Below are positions 1-63,876 of a DNA stretch of 64,000 nucleotides, piece after piece. Under the pieces are notes generated by a model. That model was not told the origin of the DNA and did not search any database. It was given only the letters and a program-made list of their open reading frames with translations. The translations under genes and the position numbers were made by a program. The number at the start of each line of letters is the position of its first letter. Position 1 is the stretch's first letter. Source of the DNA: Dehalococcoidia bacterium. Its GTDB lineage: Bacteria > Chloroflexota > Dehalococcoidia > Lucifugimonadales > CAJWER01. The stretch spans positions 191,200 through 255,199 of the forward strand of contig CBDHCU010000001.1 in the NCBI GenBank assembly GCA_965261325.1, read 5' to 3'.

Positions 1-168
1 TCATTCGACCTTCCCGTAGAATGCTCATCCACGCCCCGAACATACCTGTCGAGGCAGTCCTGCCTGCGCCACCCGGACTGGCACTCATTCGCACCCCTCG
101 ATATGCCAACCGCAAGTGTCCCGGACCCGCTGCAAACATCTTGAGAGTGAATTAGTTGGAGCAGATGG
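1..168 (+). mobile_element. IS4-family insertion sequence, copy A (3' end only, cut by window edge)
   Basis: Bases 1..168 match 3099..3266 of the complete copy B. They include the last ~51 transposase codons (stop at 151-153) and the right terminal inverted repeat AATTAGTTGGAGCAGATGG. Confidence 0.9.
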
Positions 169-433
169 GGTTTGAAACCCGCCCCTACAGCCGGGCACGC
201 AAACATCCCCCTCATCCCTTCGGCAAGTTCAGGGCAGGCTCCACCCCCCTCAAGACCGGGGATGGGTTCCCGCCTCCGCGGGAATGACGGCCATGCGCGC
301 GGGAATGACGGTTGTGGTGTGCAAGTTGTTGGCCCCGCTCGGCCCGGTTGGGCGGCGGGGCGGGTTCAGACCCAGATTTTGAACCGGCTGGGTCTGGGGA
401 TGCCGGCCTCGCGCATCTTGTCGAAGGGCCGCT

Positions 434-1741
434 TCATCCAGACGCTCTCGGCCTTGGGCGTGGTCCCGGGTTCGCGGGAGCGGCGGCGCTTGGGCGAAGT
501 TTTCTTCTGATAGACCTGGGGTATGCCGGGGCGTACTCCCAGATGTATTTGCCGTACGCGTCTGGGACCTCGCCTGAGATCCAGTAGCGGACTTCGTCGT
601 CTTCGTCGTTCTCCTTGTCTTTGCCGTGGAAGACGGCGGCTACCTCGTCGTATGCCTGGACGAACTTGTGGATTGGGTGGGACGGGTCGCGCTGGGCTTC
701 GGCGATCTTGCGGTCGATGTCGTAGCAGCCGCGGTGGTCGTTCGTGTCGTCTGCGTCGGCGGGGCCGGGGATGGGTTCCCGCCCCGTATCGAGTACGGGG
801 CAGGCTCTTCTCGGGAATGACGGAGCACCCTCACCCTCACCCCAGCCCTCTCCCGTCAAGGGAGAGGGGGACGGCGGGAGCCCGTCCTCATCCCCGCCGC
901 CCTGGATACCGGGTTCCGCCGGTATGACGGTCAGGTCTGCTTCGTCGGTGCTGGGGATGGGTTCCCGCTTTCGCGGGAATGACGATCCGTCGGGCGGGAA
1001 TGACCCTTCGACTGCGCTCAGGGCAGGCTCTTCGGCGGGGCTCAGGGCAGGCTCAACTGGAAGGGAGCCGGAGCGGGCGATCTCGTCGCGGGCTATGTGT
1101 CCGAGGAGCTCGCTGGCGGCATCGACCCTCTGGCGGGGCCTGAAGCCGCGGACTACGCCGTGCATGACGTGCATGAGGAAGCTGACGACGGTCTTGCCGT
1201 GGTCGGTGCTCCCGTGGACGATGCCCGTGACGCGGGGGTCGTGGGCGAGGGATGGGGCGGCGAGGGCCGAGGCGAGGTATTCGAGGGCCTCGTGGCGCGC
1301 GCGGGCGGTTTTGGCGCAGTCGGCGTCCGGCCGGGGATGGGTTCCCGTCGCCACGGGAATGACGGTGGTGTCGCCACGGGAACGACGGGTGGTGTCGCCA
1401 CTGGAACGACGGGTGGTGTCGCCACTGGAACGACGGGTGGTGTCGCCACTGGAACGACGGGTGGTGGTGTCGCGGGTGCGCTTGCGGAGTATGACGTGGT
1501 TGCATTCGAGGCCGGTGAGCTGGGCTATGTATTCGGAGACGAGCCCGGGAGCGATGGCGTGGACCTGCTCGGCGGCTTCGAGCCTGTGGCATACTTCGAA
1601 GCCGTCGTCGTTTAGCTTTCCCTCGATGACGTCGAGGTAGAAGCGGACGATGGTCTCGCCGTTGTTGGTCTCGCGGCGGACGATGTCCGCGAGTGTGGGC
1701 GGCTCGGACTGTTCGGTGTTGCGTTCTTTGTTATGGCTCAT
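434..1741 (-). CDS. IS-linked paralog P1, unknown function (C-terminal tail out of frame relative to P2/P3)
   Basis: 435-aa ORF. It is highly similar to 3464..4882 and 21715..23149 in its N-terminal, middle and C-terminal blocks. The G-run at 492-494 is one base shorter than in P2 and P3, so the conserved tail ...KRSRSREPGTTPKAESIW.KRPFDKMREAGIPRPSRFKIWV (ancestral stop at 366-368) is lost. Confidence 0.7.
   Translation of the reverse strand: MSHNKERNTEQSEPPTLADIVRRETNNGETIVRFYLDVIEGKLNDDGFEVCHRLEAAEQVHAIAPGLVSEYIAQLTGLECNHVILRKRTRDTTTRRSSGDTTRRSSGDTTRRSSGDTTRRSRGDTTVIPVATGTHPRPDADCAKTARARHEALEYLASALAAPSLAHDPRVTGIVHGSTDHGKTVVSFLMHVMHGVVRGFRPRQRVDAASELLGHIARDEIARSGSLPVEPALSPAEEPALSAVEGSFPPDGSSFPRKREPIPSTDEADLTVIPAEPGIQGGGDEDGLPPSPSPLTGEGWGEGEGAPSFPRRACPVLDTGREPIPGPADADDTNDHRGCYDIDRKIAEAQRDPSHPIHKFVQAYDEVAAVFHGKDKENDEDDEVRYWISGEVPDAYGKYIWEYAPAYPRSIRRKLRPSAAAPANPGPRPRPRASG
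1347..1468. repeat. 24-bp tandem repeat (about 5 units) inside P1, encoding TTRRSSGD octapeptides
   Basis: GTCGCCAC(G/T)GGAA(T/C)GACGG(G)TGGT is repeated head to tail. The unit is the right arm of an R1 hairpin (TTCCCGT CGCC ACGGGAA). Confidence 0.9.
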
Positions 1742-1778: not shown

Positions 1779-1820
1779 GGGGTTGGACTTGCGATCTACA
1801 ACGACAGGGCGGGTTTAAAA

Positions 1821-3266
1821 CCATCTGCTCCAACTAATTGATAAAAAGAACCGTCCTTTCCTTTGGGTAGTCCTCCTTTGGATAGTATCAGGATAAGACT
1901 ACTCCAAAGGAGGGACAGAGCGAAATGTCCACCAGTACCGGGGACGATACAGCCACCATCGGGAGCATAGAGGAGTTTCTTCAGCAGTGTTTGAAGGACA
2001 TGGAGCCAGACCACAGTCTCAAGGGCCCTGGCAGGCCGCGCGTCCTGCCCGCAATGGCTCTGTGGGCAGGGCTGCTGGTCTGCGTCCTGAGAGGCTTCGG
2101 CAGCCAATTGGCGGTGTGGCGTCTTATCTCGGAACGCGGACTCTGGTTCTTCCCCCGATTCCCGGTTACAGACCAAGCGGTCTACAAGAGGCTCCATAGC
2201 GCGGGAACCAAGCCATTGGAGAGACTCTTCGAGCAGATCAGCGGCGTATTGGCACAACGATTGCAGGGTGTGGTAACGGAGAAGCTGGCGCCATTCGCCG
2301 AGGGCGTGGTGTGCATAGACGAGAGTACACTGGACGCCATGTCGAGAAGGCTTCCGCCTCTGAGAGAGATTCCCCAAGGCGATAGCCGTCTGCTCCCTGG
2401 CAAGCTGGCTGGCGTGTTCGACGTGAGAGGCCAGCAGTGGCGGACCGTCATGTTTCAGCCGGACCCACATCAGAACGAGAAGGTGTTGGCGCGGAAGTTG
2501 GTGGAAGACCTGCCAGCGGGAACACTGGTGGTCGCAGACTTGGGATACTTCGGCTTCGCCTGGTTCGACTGGCTCACGGACAGGGGTTACCACTGGCTGA
2601 GCAGGCTGAGAGCAAAGACCAGCTACAAGGTGATACATACCTTCTACCATCGGGGCGACGTCTTCGATGGCATCGTGTGGCTGGGAGCCCATCGCGCCGA
2701 CCGGGCCAAACACGCCGTTCGGCTGGTGACTTTCAGACAAGGCAATACGCTGCGCCGCTACATCACCAACGTTCGGGAGCCTCACACATTCCCGATTGCA
2801 TCCATGGCCGAGGTCTACGCTCGCAGGTGGGACATCGAGATGGCGCTCAAGTTGGTCAAGCAACACCTCAAGCTGCGTCTTCTGTGGTCCGCCAAGTTGG
2901 TGGTGATCCAGCAACAGATATGGGCGACGTTGATAATCTCGCAGATTCTTCAGTCGATGCGGCTTGAGATAGCCCACAGGGCCGGGGTGGACCCGTTCGA
3001 GGTGTCCATCGGCCTGCTGGTCGAGTATGCGCCACAGTATGCCTATGAAGGCAGGGACCCTGTGAAGATCTTCGTGGAGCGAGGGCGTGAGCTGGGCTTC
3101 ATTCGACCTTCCCGTAGAATGCTCATCCACGCCCCGAACATACCTGTCGAGGCAGTCCTGCCTGCGCCACCCGGACTGGCACTCATTCGCACCCCTCGAT
3201 ATGCCAACCGCAAGTGTCCCGGACCCGCTGCAAACATCTTGAGAGTGAATTAGTTGGAGCAGATGG
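1821..3266 (+). mobile_element. IS4-family insertion sequence, copy B (complete, 1446 bp)
   Basis: Perfect 19-bp terminal inverted repeats CCATCTGCTCCAACTAATT at 1821-1839 and 3248-3266 (reverse complement). It carries a single transposase ORF. Flanks are GGTTTAAAA (left) and GGTTTGAAA (right), consistent with a 9-bp target duplication. Confidence 0.9.
1925..3253 (+). CDS. IS4-family DDE transposase (442 aa)
   Basis: Candidate DDE residues lie in ...VVCIDEST..., ...LVVADLGYFGF... and ...YARRWDIEMALKLVK. The last segment fits the IS4 Y-(2)-R-(3)-E-(6)-K signature. It differs by 1 aa from the copy at 20106..21434. Confidence 0.9.
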   Translation: MSTSTGDDTATIGSIEEFLQQCLKDMEPDHSLKGPGRPRVLPAMALWAGLLVCVLRGFGSQLAVWRLISERGLWFFPRFPVTDQAVYKRLHSAGTKPLERLFEQISGVLAQRLQGVVTEKLAPFAEGVVCIDESTLDAMSRRLPPLREIPQGDSRLLPGKLAGVFDVRGQQWRTVMFQPDPHQNEKVLARKLVEDLPAGTLVVADLGYFGFAWFDWLTDRGYHWLSRLRAKTSYKVIHTFYHRGDVFDGIVWLGAHRADRAKHAVRLVTFRQGNTLRRYITNVREPHTFPIASMAEVYARRWDIEMALKLVKQHLKLRLLWSAKLVVIQQQIWATLIISQILQSMRLEIAHRAGVDPFEVSIGLLVEYAPQYAYEGRDPVKIFVERGRELGFIRPSRRMLIHAPNIPVEAVLPAPPGLALIRTPRYANRKCPGPAANILRVN

Positions 3267-3463
3267 GGTTTGAAACCCGCCCCTACAGCCGGGCACGCAA
3301 ACATCCCCCTCATCCCTTCGACAAGCTCAGGGCAGGCTCCGCCCCCCTCAAGACCGGGGATGGGTTCCCGCCTCCGCGGGAATGACGGCCATGCGCGCGG
3401 GAATGACGGTTGTGGTGTGCAAGTTGTTGGCCCCGCTCGGCCCGGTTGGGCGGCGGGGCGGGT

Positions 3464-4882
3464 TCAGACCCAGATTTTGAACCGGCTGGGTCTGGGGATG
3501 CCGGCCTCGCGCATCTTGTCGAAGGGCCGCTTCATCCAGATGCTCTCGGCCTTGGGCGTAGTCCCGGGTTCGCGGGAGCGGCTTCGCTTGGGGCGAAGTT
3601 TTCTTCTGATCGACCTGGGGTATGCCGGGGCGTACTCCCAGATGTATTTGCCGTAGGCGTCTGGGACCTCGCCTGAGATCCAGTAGCGGACTTCGTCGTC
3701 TTCGTCGTTCTCCTTGTCTTTGCCGTGGAAGACGGCGGCTACCTCGTCGTATGCCTGGACGAACTTGTGGATGGGGTGGGCCGGGTCGCGCTGGGCTTCG
3801 GCGATCTTGCGGTCTATGTCGTAGCAGCGGCGCTGTGAGTCAGTGGGCTCCGGGTCGTCTTCACCCTCACCCCAGCCCTCTCCCGTCAAGGGAGAGGGGG
3901 ACGGCGGGAGCCCGCCCTCATCCCCGCCGCCCTGGAAAGCCGGTGTGACGGTCAGGTCTGCTTCGTCGGTGCTGGGGATGGGTTCCCGCCCCGTATCGAG
4001 TACGGGGCAGGCTCTTCGCGGGAATGACGGAGCACCCTCACCCTCACCCCAGCCCTCTCCCGTCAAGGGAGAGGGGGACGGCGGGAGCCCGCCCTCATCC
4101 CCGCCGCCCTGGAAAGCCGGTGTGACGGTCAGGTCTGCTTCGTCGGTGCCGGGGATGGGTTCCCGCCTTCGCGGGAATGACGATGAAGCTGCCGGGAATG
4201 ACGGAGCACCCTCACCCTCTCCCGTCGAGGGAGAGGGGGGTACGGAGCCGGAGCGGGCGATCTCGTCGCGGGCTATGTGGCCGAGGAGCTCGCTGGCGGC
4301 ATCGACCCTCTGGCGGGGCCTGAAGCCGCGGACTACGCCGTGCATGACGTGCATGAGGAAGCTGACGACGGTCTTGCCGTGGTCGGTGCTCTCGTGGACG
4401 ATGCCGGCTACGCGCGGGTCGACGGCGAGGGATGGGGCGGCGAGGGCGGATGCGAGGTATTCGAGGGCTTCGTGGCGCGCGCGGGCGGTTTTGGCGCAGT
4501 CGGCGTCCGGCCGGGGATGGGTTCCCGTCGCCACGGGAATGACGGTGGTGTCGCCACGGGAACGACGGGTGGTGTCGTCACGGGAACGACGGGTGGCGTC
4601 GTCACGGGAATGACGGGTGGTGTCGCGGGTGCGCTTGCGGAGTATGACGTGGTTGCATTCGAGGCCGGTGAGCTGGGCTATGTATTCGGAGACGAGCCCG
4701 GGAGCGATGGCGTGGATCTGCTCGGCGGCTTCGAGCCTGTGGCAGACTTCGAAGCCTTCGTCGTTTAGCTTTCCCTCGATGACGTCGAGGTAGAAGCGGA
4801 CGATGGTCTCGCCGTTGTTGGTCTCTCGGCGGACGATGTCCGCTAGTGTGGGTGGCTCGGACTGTTCGGTGTTGTCGTACAT
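3464..4882 (-). CDS. IS-linked paralog P2, unknown function (the only apparently intact copy, 472 aa)
   Basis: I start it at ATG 4882 (MYDNTEQSEPPTLADIV...), directly behind a consensus promoter. The track ORF extends to 5191 only because it reads through MITE sequence. The N-terminal, middle and C-terminal blocks are conserved with P1 and P3. Confidence 0.75.
   Translation of the reverse strand: MYDNTEQSEPPTLADIVRRETNNGETIVRFYLDVIEGKLNDEGFEVCHRLEAAEQIHAIAPGLVSEYIAQLTGLECNHVILRKRTRDTTRHSRDDATRRSRDDTTRRSRGDTTVIPVATGTHPRPDADCAKTARARHEALEYLASALAAPSLAVDPRVAGIVHESTDHGKTVVSFLMHVMHGVVRGFRPRQRVDAASELLGHIARDEIARSGSVPPSPSTGEGEGAPSFPAASSSFPRRREPIPGTDEADLTVTPAFQGGGDEGGLPPSPSPLTGEGWGEGEGAPSFPRRACPVLDTGREPIPSTDEADLTVTPAFQGGGDEGGLPPSPSPLTGEGWGEGEDDPEPTDSQRRCYDIDRKIAEAQRDPAHPIHKFVQAYDEVAAVFHGKDKENDEDDEVRYWISGEVPDAYGKYIWEYAPAYPRSIRRKLRPKRSRSREPGTTPKAESIWMKRPFDKMREAGIPRPSRFKIWV
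3861..4165. repeat. In-frame tandem duplication (period 177 bp = 59 codons) inside the P2 linker
   Basis: CCCAGCCCTCTCCCGTCAAGGGAGAGGGGGACGGCGGGAGCCCGCCCTCATCCCCGCCGCCCTGGAAAGCCGGTGTGACGGTCAGGTCTGCTTCGTCGGTGC.GGGGATGGGTTCCCGCC occurs from 3871 and again from 4048. Confidence 0.85.
4527..4622. repeat. 24-bp tandem repeat (4 units) inside P2
   Basis: Same unit as 1347..1468 but a different copy number and sequence variants (TTRHSRDD/ATRRSRDD/TTRRSRGD). Confidence 0.85.
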
Positions 4883-5111: not shown

Positions 5112-5225
5112 CAGGGCCTTTCCAAAGTCCGTTCGTGGTGAGCCTGTCGAACCACAATTGGGGCCTTCGACAAGCTCAGGCCGAACGGCAAGGTACGACC
5201 CTATCTCAACAATGGAAAGGCCCTG
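5112..5225 (+). mobile_element. MITE4 copy a (114 bp, 13-bp perfect TIR CAGGGCCTTTCCA)
   Basis: Near-identical to 30951..31063 (inverted), 41670..41783 and 53014..53127. Confidence 0.85.
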
Positions 5226-8550: not shown

Positions 8551-8694
8551 CCCAGATCCACCACCTAATTTGGACGGATGGCGTGACGGACTGCCTCTGA
8601 GGCTATGGCTGTGCACCTTGCCGGGGATGGGTTCCCGCCCCCGACTGCTCGGGGGCAGGCTCTTCGCGGGAATGACGGAGGTGGGGGATCTGGG
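8551..8694 (+). mobile_element. MITE2 copy a (144 bp, TIR CCCAGATCC(C)CCACC)
   Basis: Near-identical to 23200..23343 and 58168..58311. It carries a long-form R1 core with inner hairpin CCCCCGACTGCTCGGGGG. Flanked by TGAG on both sides. Confidence 0.85.
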
Positions 8695-20039: not shown

Positions 20040-20092
20040 GTCCCGGTGTCAGTCGGCCCGCCTAGCCGGGTGGGCAGAGGGCGGGTTTGAAA

Positions 20093-21538
20093 CCATCTGC
20101 TCCAACTAATTCACTCTCAAGATGTTTGCAGCGGGTCCGGGACACTTGCGGTTGGCATATCGAGGGGTGCGAATGAGTGCCAGTCCGGGTGGCGCAGGCA
20201 GGACTGCCTCGACAGGTATGTTCGGGGCGTGGATGAGCATTCTACGGGAAGGTCGAATGAAGCCCAGCTCACGCCCTCGCTCCACGAAGATCTTCACAGG
20301 GTCCCTGCCTTCATAGGCATACTGTGGCGCATACTCGACCAGCAGGCCGATGGACACCTCGAACGGGTCCACCCCGGCCCTGTGGGCTATCTCAAGCCGC
20401 ATCGACTGAAGAATCTGCGAGATTATCAACGTCGCCCATATCTGTTGCTGGATCACCACCAACTTGGCGGACCACAGAAGACGCAGCTTGAGGTGTTGCT
20501 TGACCAACTTGAGCGCCATCTCGATGTCCCACCTGCGAGCGTAGACCTCGGCCATGGATGCAATCGGGAATGTGTGAGGCTCCCGAACGTTGGTGATGTA
20601 GCGGCGCAGCGTATTGCCTTGTCTGAAAGTCACCAGCCGAACGGCGTGTTTGGCCCGGTCGGCGCGATGGGCTCCCAGCCACACGAGGCCATCGAAGACG
20701 TCGCCCCGATGGTAGAAGGTATGTATCACCTTGTAGCTGGTCTTTGCTCTCAGCCTGCTCAGCCAGTGGTAACCCCTGTCCGTGAGCCAGTCGAACCAGG
20801 CGAAGCCGAAGTATCCCAAGTCTGCGACCACCAGTGTTCCCGCTGGCAGGTCTTCCACCAACTTCCGCGCCAACACCTTCTCGTTCTGATGTGGGTCCGG
20901 CTGAAACATGACGGTCCGCCACTGCTGGCCTCTCACGTCGAACACGCCAGCCAGCTTGCCAGGGAGCAGACGGCTATCGCCTTGGGGAATCTCTCTCAGA
21001 GGCGGAAGCCTTCTCGACATGGCGTCCAGTGTACTCTCGTCTATGCACACCACGCCCTCGGCGAATGGCGCCAGCTTCTCCGTTACCACACCCTGCAATC
21101 GTTGTGCCAATACGCCGCTGATCTGCTCGAAGAGTCTCTCCAATGGCTTGGTTCCCGCGCTATGGAGCCTCTTGTAGACCGCTTGGTCTGTAACCGGGAA
21201 TCGGGGGAAGAACCAGAGTCCGCGTTCCGAGATAAGACGCCACACCGCCAATTGGCTGCCGAAGCCTCTCAGGACGCAGACCAGCAGCCCTGCCCACAGA
21301 GCCATTGCGGGCAGGACGCGCGGCCTGCCAGGGCCCTTGAGACTGTGGTCTGGCTCCATGTCCTTCAAACACTGCTGAAGAAACTCCTCTATGCTCCCGA
21401 TGGTGGCTGTATCGTCCCCGGTACTGGTGGACATTTCGCTCTGTCCCTCCTTTGGAGTAGTCTTATCCTGATACTATCCAAAGGAGGACTACCCAAAGGA
21501 AAGGACGGTTCTTTTTATCAATTAGTTGGAGCAGATGG
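20093..21538 (-). mobile_element. IS4-family insertion sequence, copy C (complete, 1446 bp, inverted relative to copies A/B)
   Basis: Same 19-bp TIRs as copy B. Both flanks read TTTGAAACC on the + strand (= TTTCAAACC on the IS sense strand), consistent with a 9-bp target duplication inside GGGCGGGTTTGAAACCCGCCC. Confidence 0.9.
20106..21434 (-). CDS. IS4-family DDE transposase (442 aa)
   Basis: Differs from 1925..3253 by one residue (DGLVWLG versus DGIVWLG). Confidence 0.9.
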   Translation of the reverse strand: MSTSTGDDTATIGSIEEFLQQCLKDMEPDHSLKGPGRPRVLPAMALWAGLLVCVLRGFGSQLAVWRLISERGLWFFPRFPVTDQAVYKRLHSAGTKPLERLFEQISGVLAQRLQGVVTEKLAPFAEGVVCIDESTLDAMSRRLPPLREIPQGDSRLLPGKLAGVFDVRGQQWRTVMFQPDPHQNEKVLARKLVEDLPAGTLVVADLGYFGFAWFDWLTDRGYHWLSRLRAKTSYKVIHTFYHRGDVFDGLVWLGAHRADRAKHAVRLVTFRQGNTLRRYITNVREPHTFPIASMAEVYARRWDIEMALKLVKQHLKLRLLWSAKLVVIQQQIWATLIISQILQSMRLEIAHRAGVDPFEVSIGLLVEYAPQYAYEGRDPVKIFVERGRELGFIRPSRRMLIHAPNIPVEAVLPAPPGLALIRTPRYANRKCPGPAANILRVN

Positions 21539-21714
21539 GGTTTGAAACCCGCCCCTACAGGCGGGAACGCAAACATCCCCCTCATCCCTTCGACAAGCTC
21601 AGGGCAGGCTCCACCTTCTCCCGCCAGGGGAGAAGGGGCAAGAGGCCGCCCGGCGATCTGAGCTGGCTGACATTGTGTTGGCCCCGCTTGGCCCGGTTGG
21701 ACGGCGGGGCGGGT

Positions 21715-23149
21715 TCAGACCCAGATTTTGAACCGGCTGGGTCTGGGGATGCCGGCCTCGCGCATCTTGTCGAAGGGCCGCTTTATCCAGATGCTCTCGG
21801 CCTTGGGCGTAGTCCCGGGTTCGCGGGAGCGGCGGCGCTTGGGGCGAAGTCGTCTTCGGATCGACTTGGGATATGCCGGGGCGTACTCCCAGATGTATTT
21901 GCCGTACGCGTCTGGGACCTCGCCGGAGATCCAGTAGCGGACTTCGTCGTCTTCGTCGTTCTCCTTGTCTTCGCCATGGAAGGCGGCGGCCACCTCGTCG
22001 TATGCCTGGACGAACTTGTGGATTGGGTGGGCCGGGTCGCGCTGGGCTTCTGCGATTTTGCGGTCGATGTCGTAGCAGCCGCGGTCGGGGTCGGTGAGCT
22101 CCGGGTCGTCTTCTTCGGCGGGGCCGGGGATGGGGATGGATTCCCGCGAAGGCGGGAATGACGATTCGGTTGCGGTTGCAGTGTGCGGATCGTCTGCGTT
22201 GGCGGTGCTGGGGATGGGTTCCCGCCCCGTATCGAGTACGGGGCAGGCTCTTCGCGGGAATGACGGAGCACCCTCACCCTCACCCCAGCCCTCTCCCGTC
22301 AAGGGAGAGGGGGACGGCGGGAGCCCGTCCTCATCCCCGCCGCCCTGGAAAGCCGGTGTGACGGTCAGGTCTGCTTCGGCGGGGGCGGGGATGGGTTCCC
22401 GCTTTCGCGGGAATGACGGTGCGGCCTCACCCTCACCCTCACCCTCTCCCGTCGAGGGAGAGGGGGGTACGGAGCCGGAGCGGGCTAGCTCGTCGCGGGC
22501 TATGTGTCCGAGGGAGCTCGCTGGCGGCATCGACCCTCTGGCGGGGCCTGAAGCCGCGGACTACGCCGTGCATGACGTGGAGCAGGAAGCTGACGACGGT
22601 CTTGCCGTGGTCGGTGCTCCCGTGGACGATGCCGGCGACGCGGGGGTCGTGGGCAAGGGATGGGGTGGCGAGGGCCGAGGCGAGGTATTCGAGGGCTTCG
22701 TGGCGCGCACGGGCGGTTTTGGCGCAGTCGGCGTCCGACCGGGGATGGGTTCCCGTCGCCACGGGAATGACGGTGGTGTCGCCACGGGAACGACGGGTGG
22801 TGTCGCCACGGGAACTACCGGTGGTGTCGTCACGGGAACTACCGGTGGTGTCGTCACGGGAACTACCGGTGGTGTCGCGGGTGCGCTTGCGGAGTATGGC
22901 GTGGTTGCATTCGAGGCCGGTGAGCTGGGCTATGTATTCGGAGACGAGGCCGGGTGCGATGGCGTGGATCTGCTCGGCGGCTTCGAGCCTGTGGCAGACT
23001 TCGAAGCCGTCGTCGTTTAGCTTTCCCTCGATGACGTCGAGGTAGAAGCGGACGATGGTCTCGCCGTTGTTGGTTTCGCGGCGGACGATGTCCGCTAGTG
23101 TGGGTGGCTCGGACTGTTCGGTGTTGCGTCGTTTGTTCTTATGGCTCAT
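21715..23149 (-). pseudogene. IS-linked paralog P3, frameshifted mid-gene
   Basis: Two overlapping ORFs (22439..23149 and 21715..22530) together reproduce the P1/P2 architecture. An extra G in the run at 22512-22514 (CCGAGGGAGCTC versus CCGAGGAGCTC in P1 and P2) breaks the frame at ...AASEL|LGHIARDE. Confidence 0.75.
22755..22873. repeat. 24-bp tandem repeat (about 5 units) inside P3
   Basis: The units encode TTGSSRDD/TTGSSRGD/TTRRSRGD. Same position as in P1 and P2 but with different unit variants. Confidence 0.85.
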
Positions 23150-23156
23150 ACGTTCT

Positions 23157-23186
23157 ACTATGAGGGATCGGGTGGGGGTTTGTCAA
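23157..23186 (-). promoter_or_regulatory. Putative promoter of P3 (TTGACA ... CATAGT), identical to the P1 promoter
   Basis: Same sequence as 1749..1778. Homology with the other copies ends just beyond the -35, where MITE2 copy b begins. Confidence 0.5.
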
Positions 23187-23199
23187 GGGGGATTTTTCA

Positions 23200-23343
23200 C
23201 CCAGATCCACCACCTAATTTGGACGGATGGCGTGACGGACTGCCTCTGAGGCTATGGCTGTGCACCTTGCCGGGGATGGGTTCCCGCCCCCGACTGCTCG
23301 GGGGCAGGCTCTTCGCGGGAATGACGGCGGTGGGGGATTTGGG
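23200..23343 (+). mobile_element. MITE2 copy b (144 bp)
   Basis: Near-identical to 8551..8694 and 58168..58311. Confidence 0.85.
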
Positions 23344-30831: not shown

Positions 30832-30950
30832 TTCCTTCTCCTTTCGGTTCAGTTCGGTATTGTCAACTGTCAGCCTACGGGGCGTGATCCCGGGGCTCGG
30901 CTGCATTATTGAAGAGCGCAGCCGCAGCGTCAAGGGCACGCAGCCCGGGT

Positions 30951-31063
30951 CAGGGCCTTTCCATTGTTGAGATAGGGTCGTACCTTGCCGTTCGGCCTGA
31001 GCTTGTCGAAGGCCCCAATTGTGGTTCGACAGGCTCACCACGAACGGACTTTGGAAAGGCCCT
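30951..31063 (-). mobile_element. MITE4 copy b (inverted orientation)
   Basis: TIR CAGGGCCTTTCCA at both ends. Flanked by AGCCCGGGT / AGCCCGGGG (8 of 9 positions match as a direct repeat). Confidence 0.85.
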
Positions 31064-31071
31064 GAGCCCGG

Positions 31072-31192
31072 GGTAGTATCGATTCAAGGTAGTTTTGGCG
31101 AACGTCCAGCCCCCCGCCCCTCTGGGTTCCCGCTTTCGCGGGAATGACGGCAATCCGAGGGTTCTGTCATATTTAGATTGAAGCAGTAGTAG
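31072..31192 (+). mobile_element. MITE3 copy b (short form, R1 core with a TTTC loop)
   Basis: GTAGTATCGATTCAAGGTAGTTTTGGCGAACGTCCAGCC...GGGTTCCCGCTTTCGCGGGAATGACGGCAATCCGAGGGTTCTGTCATATTTAGATTGAAGCAGTAGTAG. Compare 57883..58026. Confidence 0.8.
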
Positions 31193-31298: not shown

Positions 31299-31373
31299 TC
31301 CGCAGTAGCTCAGTGGTAGAGCGGTCGGCTGTTAACCGATTAGTCGCAGGTTCGAATCCTGCCTGCGGAGCCA
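31299..31373 (+). tRNA. tRNA-Asn (GTT)
   Basis: Cloverleaf folded by hand: acceptor TCCGCAG/CTGCGGA, anticodon loop CTGTTAA, T-loop TTCGAAT, encoded CCA. Confidence 0.9.
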
Positions 31374-33109: not shown

Positions 33110-34029
33110 ATGACGCAAGAACGTGTTGCATACGTAAACGGCGAGATCGTGCCGGAGAGCGAGGCCTCTGTCTCGATCAGCGACCGCGGGTTCATCATGG
33201 GCGACGCCGTATTCGACACTACCCGCACGTTCGGTCACGAGGTCTTCAGGCTGGGCGAGCATCTCGACAGGCTGTACGAATCGCTCAAGTGGATGCGCAT
33301 CGATCCGCAGATGACGAAGGCCGAGATGGCCGCCCTGACGATGGACGTGCTGGAACGCAACCTCCCTACGCTGGACGAGCGCGACGACACGTGGGTGACG
33401 CAGCGGGTCACCCGCGGGCTCCGACTGGCGGGCGGGGACATCCAGGCCTCCGCCGACCGTCCGGGGATCATCATCGAGTGCTTCCCGATACCGTTCAGGG
33501 AGCGCGCGCGCACTACTACCGGGACGGCATGCCCATCATCACTCCGTCGGTTCGGCGCACTCCTCCCGACGCCATGAGTCCCCGGGCGAAGACACACAAC
33601 TACATCAACCTCATCCAGGCGGACATGGAGGCGCGGGCCCAGGACCCGAACGCCTACGCCCTGCTGCTCGACGTGAACGGCAACCTGTGCGAGGGCAACG
33701 GCAGCAACATCTTCGTGGTCAAGGAGGGGGCGGTCCGCACGCCACGGAGCCAGTTCGTGCTCGGCGGCATCAGCCGGCAGACGACGATGGACCTGGCCCA
33801 CGAGCTTGGGATCGAGACGACGGAGGCGGACATCGACGTGTTCGACGCCTACACGGCGGACGAGATATTCGTGACATCGACGAGCCTGTGCATCTGTCCC
33901 GTATCGACCTTCAACGGCGCGCCGGTCGGCGACGGCGAGATGCCCGGCCCTGTGACCGACCGGCTGCAGAGAGCCTACAGCGGCCTCGTCGGCATCGATA
34001 TCGTAGCGCAATACACGCGCTGGCTGTAA
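33110..34029 (+). pseudogene. Class IV aminotransferase (branched-chain/D-amino-acid aminotransferase family), frameshifted
   Basis: ORFs 33110..33577 and 33289..34029 join as ...ECFPIPFRERAR|HYYRDGMPIITPSVRR... The frame is lost at the GCGCGCGCGC tract near 33503-33512. Downstream blocks (...K.HNY.N...A...A....YALLLD..G.L.EG.GSNIF.V..G...TP) fit fold-type IV. Confidence 0.75.
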
Positions 34030-34050
34030 GGCGGGTTTCAAACCCGCCTT
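34028..34050. repeat. Unoccupied GGCGGG-TTTCAAA-CCCGCC palindrome (same type as the IS target)
   Basis: AAGGCGGGTTTCAAACCCGCCTT overlaps the TAA stop at 34027-34029. Confidence 0.8.
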
Positions 34051-52831: not shown

Positions 52832-53013
52832 CTGCAAGTCTCCGTTGGGGATTTCGTAAGACGGGTGCATTATACCCCTGCCCTGGCTTTCTGGCAATTC
52901 ACCAGGCCAAGGCGGAGCTGTTCAGATTTCGTGAGAACACTGGATGCGCGCAGCCCACCGTCATACGGGTATGACGGGGTGGGGGGCCTTCCTCGCGCCA
53001 AGACTGAACAGAT

Positions 53014-53127
53014 ACCCCTGAGGCAGGGCCTTTCCAAAGTCCGTTCGTGGTGAGCCTGTCGAACCACAATTGGGGCCTTCGACAAGCTCAGGCCGAACGG
53101 CAAGGTACGACCCTATCTCAACAATGG
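53014..53127 (+). mobile_element. MITE4 copy d with 9-bp target-site duplication CCCCTGAGG
   Basis: CCCCTGAGG occurs immediately before (53005-53013) and after (53128-53136) the element. Confidence 0.9.
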
Positions 53128-53222
53128 AAAGGCCCTGCCCCTGAGGGGCACGAATTGACATGCTGACATGGCGCGGGCTATCGTTGATTAGCTGCCAACA
53201 GGCACTAGCAGGCAGCCAACTA

Positions 53223-56951: not shown

Positions 56952-57041
56952 GGAGAGGTGGCCGAGCGGTTTAAGGCGCCGGTCTCGAAAACCGGTATGG
57001 GAGCAATCTCATCGTGGGTTCGAATCCCACCCTCTCCGCCA
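56952..57041 (+). tRNA. tRNA-Ser (CGA)
   Basis: Acceptor GGAGAGG/CCTCTCC, anticodon stem CCGGT/ACCGG with loop CTCGAAA, long variable arm, T-loop TTCGAAT, encoded CCA. Confidence 0.9.
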
Positions 57042-57042
57042 G

Positions 57043-57132
57043 GGAGAGATGCCAGAGTGGCCGATTGGGCGCGACTGGAAATCGCGTGTCGCTGCAAGGC
57101 GACCGTGGGTTCGAATCCCACTCTCTCCGCCA
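57043..57132 (+). tRNA. tRNA-Ser (GGA)
   Basis: Acceptor GGAGAGA/TCTCTCC, anticodon stem CGCGA/TCGCG with loop CTGGAAA, long variable arm, encoded CCA. Separated from the previous tRNA by 1 nt. Confidence 0.9.
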
Positions 57133-58167: not shown

Positions 58168-58311
58168 CCCAGATCCACCACCTAATTTGGACGGATGGCG
58201 TGACGGACTGCCTCTGAGGCTATGGCTGTGCATCTTGCCGGGGATGGGTTCCCGCCCCCGACTGCTCGGGGGCAGGCTCTTCGCGGGAATGACGGAGGTG
58301 GGGGATTTGGG
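58168..58311 (+). mobile_element. MITE2 copy c (144 bp)
   Basis: Near-identical to 8551..8694. Flanked by TAGGG on both sides. Confidence 0.85.
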
Positions 58312-63395: not shown

Positions 63396-63700
63396 TTTGT
63401 GTCATTCCGAGCGCAGCGAGGAATCTAAGAACCTTGCACAAAGGCTACCACCTAGATTCTTCACTCCGCTGCGCTACGTTCAGAATCACTATGGCCTTGC
63501 GCAGGCCACATAAGGGGATGAAAATGGCGTGGCCTACCCCATCGTCACTCCCGCGAAGGCGGGAGTCCAGGGCGACTGGGCTCCGTGTCAGGTACAGAGC
63601 AGGCTCCAAGCCACCTGCCGGGGATGGGTTCCCGCCCCCGACTGCTCGGGGGCAGGCTCTTCGCGGGAATGACGGGTGTGGCTGTCTGCTGTCTATTTTC
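63396..63700. repeat. Pile of unrelated palindromic repeat units (R7 GTCATTCCGAGCGCAGCGAGGAATC type, R5, R1 variants)
   Basis: Read directly: R5 at 63491..63527, a TCACTCCCGCGAAGGCGGGAGTCC hairpin at ~63547-63570, and a long-form R1 at ~63619-63675. Confidence 0.75.
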
Positions 63701-63753: not shown

Positions 63754-63876
63754 CCCAGATTCCCCACCTCCACATTCGGCGCCATATCTATCAGCCATCA
63801 CCCCGTAGGGGCTGGTTTCAAACCAGCCCTCCCCTTGCCATTAGGGCGTCGCCGCCATTTAGGTGGGGGATTTGGG
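63754..63876 (+). mobile_element. MITE2-like variant whose cargo is a GGCTGG-TTTCAAA-CCAGCC hairpin
   Basis: Ends are CCCAGATTCCCCACC ... GGTGGGGGATTTGGG. The internal hairpin lies at 63809..63829. Confidence 0.65.

Follow-up and report, generated by a model that had tools for sequence, protein, structure and literature searches.

Several bacterial insertion sequences (ISs) take repetitive extragenic palindromes (REPs) as their targets. This has been shown experimentally for IS1397 and ISKpn1 of the IS3 family and for IS621 of the IS110 family, and by genome analysis for ISPsy8, ISPa11, ISPpu9, ISPpu10, ISRm19 and ISRm22 (PMC1525189). ISRm22 of Sinorhizobium meliloti 1021 belongs to the IS4 family (subgroup IS4Sa), and all of its 9–10 copies lie at the axis of a REP palindrome (PMC1525189); its hybrid or imperfect direct repeats were ascribed to recombination between copies (Tobes & Pareja 2006, PMC1525189). 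Conserved target arms have been described for several IS4-family members (PMC2266710). IS231A prefers the target GGGNNNNNCCC, GGG(N)5CCC, and symmetric target consensus sequences are also known for Tn10 (GNNGCTNAGCNNC) and Tn5 (AGNTYWRANCT) (PMC2577343). Here we analyzed a 64-kb stretch of a sponge-associated Chloroflexota genome (the window), which carries a 1444-bp IS4-family element inserted repeatedly in the center of one type of palindrome. We consider it likely that this is an active, multi-copy IS whose transposase selects the dyad center of REPs headed by GTAG. REP targeting by IS4-family elements is already known and the window element adds another case; the element and its clade both show the REP-targeting ‘type 1 association’ of Tobes & Pareja (2006).

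Like the window element, ISRm22 combines an IS4-family DDE transposase with insertion at the REP axis, conserved target arms and some imperfect repeats. It differs in its 6-bp repeats and its proteobacterial REP, whereas the window element has CAT ends, generates 9–12-bp duplications and occupies GTAGGGGCG-headed REPs of Chloroflexota and co-resident phyla. The two were compared by behavior and not by protein, and no Sinorhizobium was among the listed plasmid relatives. IS231A from Bacillus thuringiensis resembles the window element in its CAT ends, single transposase, 10–12-bp duplications (11 typical) and symmetric GC-rich target. However, the conserved GGG/CCC of IS231A lies inside the duplicated 11 bp, whereas the GGGGCR/YGCCCC arms of the window element lie outside the duplication and the core is free. 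IS1397, ISKpn1 and ISPsy8 share with it a DDE transposase and a palindromic target, their insertion being specific to enterobacterial palindromic units (cited in PMC1525189). ISPpu9, ISPpu10, ISPa11 and IS621, all of the IS110 family, resemble it in holding a fixed REP position in 100% of copies. In IS110-family elements, a bridge or seek RNA guides a DEDD recombinase and classical terminal inverted repeats are absent; the window element, by contrast, combines a DDE/YREK transposase with perfect inverted repeats and duplications one helical turn long. IS1397 and ISKpn1 belong to another family, with a two-ORF (open reading frame), frameshifted transposase, a circle intermediate and short duplications of 3–4 bp.

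The window holds two complete IS copies (B and C) and the right end of a third (A), as follows.

1..167, + strand: right end of IS copy A, truncated by the start of the window, with the terminus ...CAGATG, 100% complementary to 20094-20260
1822..3265, + strand: IS copy B, 1444 bp, ends CAT...ATG
1822-1839 and 3248-3265: terminal inverted repeats of copy B, CATCTGCTCCAACTAATT, 18 bp, perfect
20094..21537, - strand: IS copy C, 1444 bp, inverted, 100% identical to B
150-168(-), 1821-1839(+), 3248-3266(-), 20093-20111(+) and 21520-21538(-): matches to the 19-nt terminal repeat CCATCTGCTCCAACTAATT

The five ends bearing the 19-nt repeat compare with 0.01 expected by chance, and the terminal inverted repeats are perfect at 18/19 bp. 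The outermost C...G of the 19-nt repeat is target and not IS, and the element is 1822-3265, CAT...ATG. We set the boundary there because the base just outside CAT/ATG varies among 100%-identical copies in single metagenome-assembled genomes (MAGs; G..C, C..G, T..G, A..C and G..T), and because IS unitigs from four public runs holding the source genome start at 1822 and stop at 3265. The initial annotation had placed copy C at 20093..21538. Its 1446-nt identity to copy B holds, with 1821-3266 and 20093-21538 being 100% complementary over 1446 nt by repeat finder, while the IS proper is 20094-21537. No RNA family of Rfam was found within the element.

In the four source runs, the word depth of the IS was 158-1430 compared to 4.7-31.6 for a single-copy gene, a 34-60-fold excess. 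The IS is thus abundant in the source community, and part of this depth may stem from other genomes. Position 1889 is A in every IS unitig from the four source runs and in one of the copies in another assembly described below (L002), whereas it is C in copy B and at the corresponding position of copy C; the window copies are therefore a minority variant of the IS population. In one run (X4), a single contig joins 1839 to 3248, skipping 1408 nt, which suggests that the source sample holds a minimal derivative with little beyond the two terminal repeats.

Every copy in the window splits a palindrome, GGGCGGGTTT(G/A)AAACCCGCCCCTAC. The REP halves beside the three copies, and the two unoccupied palindromes found in the window, are the following.

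168..188: right REP half beside copy A, GGGTTTGAAAC (168-178) then CCGCCCCTAC; repeat family D14, 97% identical to the B and C junctions
1807..1821: left REP half of copy B, GGGC then GGGTTTAAAAC (1811-1821), A and not G at the dyad base
3266..3286: right REP half of copy B, GGGTTTGAAAC (3266-3276) then CCGCCCCTAC, GTAG head on the - strand
20079..20093: left REP half of copy C, GGGC then GGGTTTGAAAC (20083-20093)
21538..21558: right REP half of copy C, GGGTTTGAAAC (21538-21548) then CCGCCCCTAC
34028..34050: unoccupied palindrome with the same type of loop, AAGGCGGGTTTCAAACCCGCCTT, immediately following a TAA stop, arms deviating from the GGGGCR consensus
63806..63832: unoccupied GTAG-headed palindrome, GTAGGGGCTGGTTTCAAACCAGCCCTC, arm GGGGCT and not GGGGCR

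Joining the flanks yielded the palindrome GGGCGGGTTTSAAACCCGCCCCTAC. With slashes marking the junctions, copy B reads ...ACAGGGCGGGTTTAAAA/CCATCTG...CAGATGG/GGTTTGAAACCCGCCCCTACAG and copy C, on the + strand, ...GCAGAGGGCGGGTTTGAAA/CCATCTG...CAGATGG/GGTTTGAAACCCGCCCCTACAG, its left flank also being quoted as GGGCGGGTTTGAAA. On the + strand, B and C occupy the same position of the palindrome, the IS of C being inverted. In the window, 11 bp are duplicated (GGGTTTGAAAC). For copy C the duplication is perfect (20083-20093 = 21538-21548), and for copy B it matches at 10/11 positions, the left copy having A as its dyad base (1811-1821 vs 3266-3276). GGTTTSAAACC occurs six times in the window compared to 0.02 expected.

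These junctions agree with the initial annotation that the IS sits in the center of a palindrome in both orientations, since the joined flanks rebuild the palindrome and C is inverted relative to B. The details it gave of the junctions have to be corrected. The flanks that it quoted for copy C are inconsistent with its own coordinates, the duplications that it took for 9 bp are 11 bp, and the 2-bp offset that it saw between B and C is a boundary artifact. As the target is palindromic, such an offset is seen only when each copy is read in its own IS frame.

Could the palindrome halves instead belong to the element, giving it terminal inverted repeats of ~38 bp that include GTAGGGGCGG and the loop, and making the target preference illusory? 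We regard this as extremely improbable. The flanks are indeed mutually inverted, as expected of a palindromic target, and four related loci (L062, L064, L091 and L044; L numbers denote loci) show perfect inverted repeats. However, non-palindromic inner segments are duplicated directly, as with CCCTTGTGG on both sides in L014, L019, L020 and L061; flanks differ among identical copies of one genome; unitigs branch exactly at CAT/ATG; and the arms are usually asymmetric, with the GTAG head on one side only. Uninterrupted palindromes also exist, both in the window (34028 and 63806) and in the source sample, where contigs show an uninterrupted GGGCGGGTTTGAAACCCGCCCC before the right-flank unit (paralogous or allelic, with loose ends at 3266). 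An empty allele of the exact copy-B site was not seen among the source-run contigs aligned to copy B.

The initial annotation had proposed that flanks of other copies be tabulated, and had taken copies in unrelated, non-palindromic sequence as the outcome that would speak against a palindrome preference. Exact look-up of the transposase led to two further places in another assembly (L001 and L002). Their neighbors are unrelated, with an ABC transporter and cytidylate kinase at one and a GMC oxidoreductase and IGPD at the other, and compared to copy B their IS DNA shows 0 (L001) and 2 (L002) differences. Both split GTAGGGGCGGGTTTSAAACCCGCCCT with an 11-bp duplication as in the window and the geometry of copy C, their junctions being GTAGGGGCGGGTTTGAAACC/CCATCTG...CAGATGG/TTTGAAACCCGCCCTCCCC and GTAGGGGCGGGTTTCAAACC/CCATCTG...CAGATGG/TTTCAAACCCGCCCTGACG. 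Thus, 4/4 same-lineage copies with both flanks known lie in a REP, and the fifth, copy A, for which the right junction is available, matches.

A scan of GTDB representative genomes yielded 76 loci encoding relatives at 63–89% amino acid (aa) identity. These are mostly in long-read MAGs of Dehalococcoidia and other Chloroflexota, with some in Binatia, Latescibacterota and Anaerolineae and one in a Poribacteria bin, and related runs are labeled sponge metagenome. IS ends and flanks were pulled out by script and the flanks de-duplicated, giving 67 unique full-length copies. Perfect duplications among them measured 9 bp (24 copies), 10 bp (15), 11 bp (6) and 12 bp (1), and copies 100% identical to each other within one MAG showed duplications of 9, 10, 11 and 12 bp. 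The target consensus is GTAGGGGCG-N, the 9–12-bp duplication, then N-CGCCCCTAC. In the logo of the arms, which are constant, GTAGGGGCGn precedes the cut and nCGCCC(C)TAC follows it. The duplicated core varies by REP subtype (GTTTCAAAC, CCCTTGTGG, TTCGCGAATC, GACGCGTGCG, CCACAAGAG, TCACACATGA and others), and identical IS copies use subtypes with different inner sequence (GGTTTCAAACC, ACCCTTGTGGT, ATTCGCGAAT and AACCATAAGGGTT) and the same arms.

For the statistics, we defined a clean site as a unique site with a perfect duplication of at least 9 bp (n = 54; L109/L140 are one site seen twice). A GTAGGGG or CCCCTAC head with at most one mismatch lay at most 11 nt from the cut in 53/54 clean sites, while 1.6% of 297,000 background positions from the window and the flanking DNA passed the same test (P about 3e-94). 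With a looser REP half-signature demanded on both flanks, 56/67 full copies were positive compared to 5.7-6.0% of background positions, and a REP half was present on at least one flank in 66/67 unique full copies. The center of the duplication fell at most 1 nt from the arm midpoint in 36/37 sites in which both arms could be located. The commonest layout was arm-N-[9 bp]-N-arm (17 sites), and the GTAG head was on the side of the left terminal inverted repeat in 31 sites, on that of the right one in 17 and on both in 5. We tried a rule in which arm spacing sets the duplication length and rejected it: a spacing of 11 nt mostly gave 9 bp and one of 12 nt gave 10 bp, but one of 10 nt gave 9, 10 or 12 bp.

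The target preference is therefore real and strong, and it is kept across a clade of 63–100% aa identity. The preference for the palindrome anticipated by the initial annotation is upheld by the two more same-lineage copies and ~65 relatives, which lie in the same class of palindrome, at its center; copies in unrelated, non-palindromic sequence were not found in this tabulation. It is very improbable that insertion is near-random and that only copies in harmless REPs survive purifying selection. REPs are extragenic, their disruption is tolerated and all of the data are survivors, in keeping with such a process. Selection of this kind explains enrichment in intergenic DNA, but not placement within 1 nt of the dyad in 36/37 sites or a cut 1 nt from the arm, and the REP heads number only ~1-1.5 per 10 kb of flanking DNA, far below the neutral intergenic space.

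The same ends and the same kind of site recur in short elements resembling miniature inverted-repeat transposable elements (MITEs). An 18-nt terminal pattern gave 120 loci in JGI metagenome contigs, over half of them chance matches in AT-rich DNA, and we kept just the loci that had a partner end or a GC-rich REP flank. An exact search of the JGI metagenome contigs for the 27-nt left end of the window lineage gave no match. The MITE-like elements, 136-476 bp long, come from unrelated metagenomes; an example is L144, GTAGGGGCAGGTTTCCAACA/166 bp/GTTTCCAACAGCCC. We also observed that L144 (242-407), L148 (98-263), L158, L094 and L130 are MITE-like elements of 136-384 bp with CATCYGYTCCAACTAATT termini and 9–10-bp duplications in GTAGGGGC-headed palindromes. 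At L032 (about 1899-3575), an internally deleted copy of 219 bp lies directly behind a full IS, with only the duplicated GTTTCAAACC(C) between them, so that one REP holds two elements in tandem. Signs of activity are the identity of B, C and L001, the high word depth of the IS and the MITE-like derivatives in the same type of site.

Each complete copy in the window encodes a single transposase.

1925..3253, + strand: transposase gene of copy B, 442 aa, single ORF
20106-21434, - strand: transposase gene of copy C, 442 aa

The 442-aa protein matched NCBIfam NF033592 (transpos_IS4_1) with 140.6 bits against a curated cut-off of 115, and Pfam PF01609 (DDE_Tnp_1) with an E value of 4.5e-19. Together with the perfect terminal repeats, these matches bear out the IS4-family element initially placed inside 1805-3290. 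The IS4 family is defined by D(60-110)D(100-150)E spacing and by a Y-(2)-R-(3)-E-(6)-K motif containing the catalytic E (PMC2266710; De Palmenaer et al. 2008). The motif YARRWDIEMALKLVK at residues 298-312 supplies Y298, R301, E305 and K312 in exactly this spacing. The candidate catalytic residues are D132, D205 and E305, the D residues being picked from local motifs and not via Tn5 alignment; they leave spacers of 72 and 99 residues, the second one residue below the quoted IS4 range. With a DDE_Tnp_1-type transposase in one ORF without frameshift, the YREK motif, 5'-CA ends and duplications of about one helical turn, it is rightly called an IS4-family element. The sole ORF of DDE/YREK type, the perfect inverted repeats and the 9–12-bp duplications do not fit IS110/IS1111 or IS200/IS605 elements, which use a DEDD recombinase with a guide RNA or a HUH Y1 transposase with subterminal hairpins, respectively, and have neither classical inverted repeats nor a duplicated target. 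It had been assumed at first that a preference for a hairpin-forming repeat was behavior typical of those groups and not of IS4; ISRm22, IS231A and the target arms of IS4-family members contradict this.

Placement within the family is less sharp. The CAT ends, size and repeat length are compatible with the IS231 and ISH8 subgroups alike. Repeats are 10-12 bp in the IS231 subgroup, 10 bp in ISH8 and 10-13 bp in IS4, and the IS231 subgroup is almost restricted to Firmicutes (PMC2266710). Compared to the IS231 terminal consensus CAT-------AA--TAA, CATCTGCTCCAACTAATT has the CAT and the AA at 11-12, with TAA one position early. By phmmer, the transposase had no significant match among PDB sequences, Tn5 transposase included. 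Relatives found by tblastn in PLSDB plasmids reached at most ~31% identity and were annotated ‘IS4 family transposase’; a large protein search gave no ISfinder-style name, its relatives being named solely ‘IS4 family transposase’. Among cultured hosts, Nitrolancea hollandica is the nearest (65%). A 37%-identical relative in an Actinomycetota MAG (L073, about 698-2310), a single case read by eye, has the ends CATTTGATTCAACAAATT and CATCAGTACCAACAAATT and a 9-bp duplication, GCCTCGCCC, in an imperfect palindrome without a GTAG head. Either the terminal motif therefore predates the preference for GTAG-REPs, or this branch has a different preference.

To the right of each of A, B and C lies a 1.65-kb unit; the three units (169-1820, 3267 to about 4900 and 21539-23190) are paralogous, each with a - strand ORF and a REP at its end. 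The three copies adjoin paralogous units because each unit ends in such a REP. Alternatively, A, B and C could be one insertion that was copied with its unit by segmental duplication, C being inverted later. The same right junction and paralogous right flank (D14) at all three copies, the head-to-tail arrangement A-unit-B-unit and the imperfect left duplication copy of B (A for G) fit this history, which we nevertheless judge unlikely. The units are 91–100% identical per 100-nt block, with several indels, whereas B and C show 0/1446 nt differences. Copy C, with its unique left flank, perfect 11-bp duplication and opposite orientation, is an independent, recent insertion; the initial annotation, too, had taken it for an independent insertion. 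A and B show no differences in the 168 nt of visible IS but three in the first 90 nt outside and ~2% over the unit, and we lean weakly towards separate insertions or homogenization for these two. Gene conversion among IS copies could imitate recent insertion, so a co-duplication of A and B is possible. Inversion of the 17-kb B-C segment was considered as the origin of the flanks and rejected, as the present arrangement has matching direct duplications.

The unit itself showed some further features. Its ORF at 434..1741 (- strand, 435 aa) had no Pfam, NCBIfam or PHROG match and contains in-frame short interspersed repeats, translated SFPRRREPIP... and PSPSPLTGEGWGEGEG. Unit C has this ORF broken into two parts (21715..22530 and 22439..23149). 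The word depth at 1500-1783 in the source runs was 375-1214 compared to 13 for single-copy DNA, and the unit seems to be high-copy.

REPs tagged with GTAG have been reported from phyla that include Chloroflexi (PMC3733652; Di Nocera et al. 2013). The reconstructed target sites are 25-30-bp GC-rich palindromes or stem-loops, usually with the GTAG head at one end only, and agree with the definition of such REPs as 20-40-bp GC-rich stem-loops, GTAG at one end, repeated and mostly extragenic. They are of modest abundance, with 38 GTAGGGGY heads in 245 kb of flanking DNA, or about 1-1.5 per 10 kb. A different, 66-nt repeat family (D1, GGGGATGGGTTCCCGCC...GCGGGAATGACGG) has 16 copies in the window, e.g. 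at 8619-8684, 23268-23333, 58236-58301 and 63616-63681. Its reverse complement begins CCGTCATTCCCGC, like the CGTC-tagged REP class (Di Nocera et al. 2013), and several copies are within ORFs.

How might the transposase find the dyad center? By analogy with Tn5, Tn10 and IS231A, transposition would be cut-and-paste, with a dimeric transpososome capturing a duplex target and attacking the strands about 9-11 bp apart. The staggered cuts would lie about one helical turn apart (9–12 bp, modally 9, and 11 in the window), usually 1 nt inside each GC-rich arm, and the duplicated segment would then consist of inner stem and loop. The consensus target is GTAGGGGCG-N, duplicated segment, N-CGCCCC(TAC). 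By the same analogy, the two GGGGCR arms would be read as symmetric half-sites in double-stranded DNA and not as an extruded hairpin, a REP presenting two such half-sites at a suitable spacing. The IS would enter in either orientation because the target is nearly two-fold symmetric. Tn10/IS10 and Tn5/IS50, which are IS4-family elements with two-fold symmetric targets, provide the model for a palindrome read as duplex; they differ in having hot spots and a duplication fixed at 9 bp, whereas the window element makes near-exclusive use of one repeat family. In our view, the element most likely captures duplex targets in the ordinary IS4-type manner, and its symmetric consensus is very narrow. The variable 9–12-bp duplication of identical copies falls within the IS4-family range.

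Under a structure-specific mechanism, the transposase or a host factor would recognize a cruciform or single-strand hairpin and cut at the base of the loop, and the conserved arm sequence would merely be that of the REP family carried by the hosts. Several observations are in keeping with this: inner stem positions are 71–93% complementary while their sequence varies by REP subtype, the cuts flank the loop and inner stem, duplications of 9–12 bp by one element are easier to reconcile with a flexible target than with a rigid B-form ruler, and the inverted duplications in L044, L062, L064 and L091 are hard to obtain from a plain duplex target. We still find the mechanism doubtful. A duplication of 9–12 bp, ~one helical turn, is the hallmark of IS4-family duplex attack (PMC2266710), a symmetric duplex consensus is normal for Tn10, Tn5 and IS231A, and recombination between IS copies, to which the hybrid repeats of ISRm22 have been attributed, can yield inverted duplications too. 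In addition, some clean sites (L006, L109/L140, L052 and L030) have a single recognizable arm and poor complementarity, with the cut 1 nt from the arm. These one-armed sites favor the reading of arm sequence over a hairpin requirement, but are suggestive only. A crude score of arm complementarity, intended to tell recognition of sequence from that of structure, is confounded by register shifts and was used for individual examples only.

A number of points weigh against selection of the REP dyad by the transposase as we propose it. First, all sites are genome survivors, and selection for harmless intergenic sites contributes some share of the pattern. The sites are also not phylogenetically independent, even with flanks de-duplicated and L109/L140 recognized as the same site. 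Second, about 20/67 full copies have no perfect duplication. Among these, L041, L043, L057 and L058 have flanks from two REP subtypes, while window copy B, L033 and L068 differ only at or near the dyad base. In L062, L064, L091 and L044 the duplicated segment is inverted, producing a perfect inverted repeat of ~38 bp, and L027 is approximately so; examples from this group (L062/L064 being on CBDDQX010000001.1) read GTTTGAAAC/IS/GTTTCAAAC and CCCCCTGTGG/IS/CCACAGGGGG. Such imperfect and inverted duplications need secondary recombination or another process. Recombination between copies would place the differences mainly in the loop, since no other part varies from REP to REP. One reciprocal inversion involving L062 and L064 cannot by itself account for their inverted central base, as it predicts G/C at one and C/G at the other and both are G/C. 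Third, recognition of sequence and of structure are inseparable here, the arms being both conserved and complementary. Finally, the palindromes are named REPs by their GTAG head, palindromy and repetition alone, and what excludes a site cannot be read from just two unoccupied palindromes in the window.

Elsewhere in the window, a repeat of ~115-129 bp is present in three copies (30947-31075, 53013-53141 and 5112-5225), its inverted copies being 96–100% identical; one copy lies slightly more than 200 bp upstream of a tRNA gene. The window has three tRNA genes (31299-31370, 56952-57038 and 57043-57129) and no other Rfam family.

The preference for the REP center explains why the IS recurs beside the same repeated unit in the window, and it is conserved over a whole IS4 clade and not confined to a single element. 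With more than 50 clean sites, several phyla and MITE derivatives, this is a well-sampled case in a thinly documented class of REP-targeting ISs. For annotation, it warns that GTAGGGGCG...CGCCCCTAC halves beside CAT...ATG are target remnants and not part of the element, and its defined consensus can be used to find empty sites and to score IS-mediated rearrangements in long-read MAGs of sponge symbionts. The narrow choice of site combined with a freely variable core may make the element a useful model for target capture by IS4-type transpososomes. In a bolder version, which we hold to be rather unlikely, the REP arms, or else an extruded hairpin or cruciform, would set the position of the transposase in place of a rigid duplex consensus, and the 9–12-bp duplication, occasionally inverted, would be set by target geometry. 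If so, this would be structure- or half-site-guided target capture of a kind undescribed for IS4-type DDE transposases, and the clade, spread across phyla of sponge symbionts, would constitute a natural, nearly site-specific DDE integration system acting on repeats generated by REP-associated tyrosine transposases (RAYTs).

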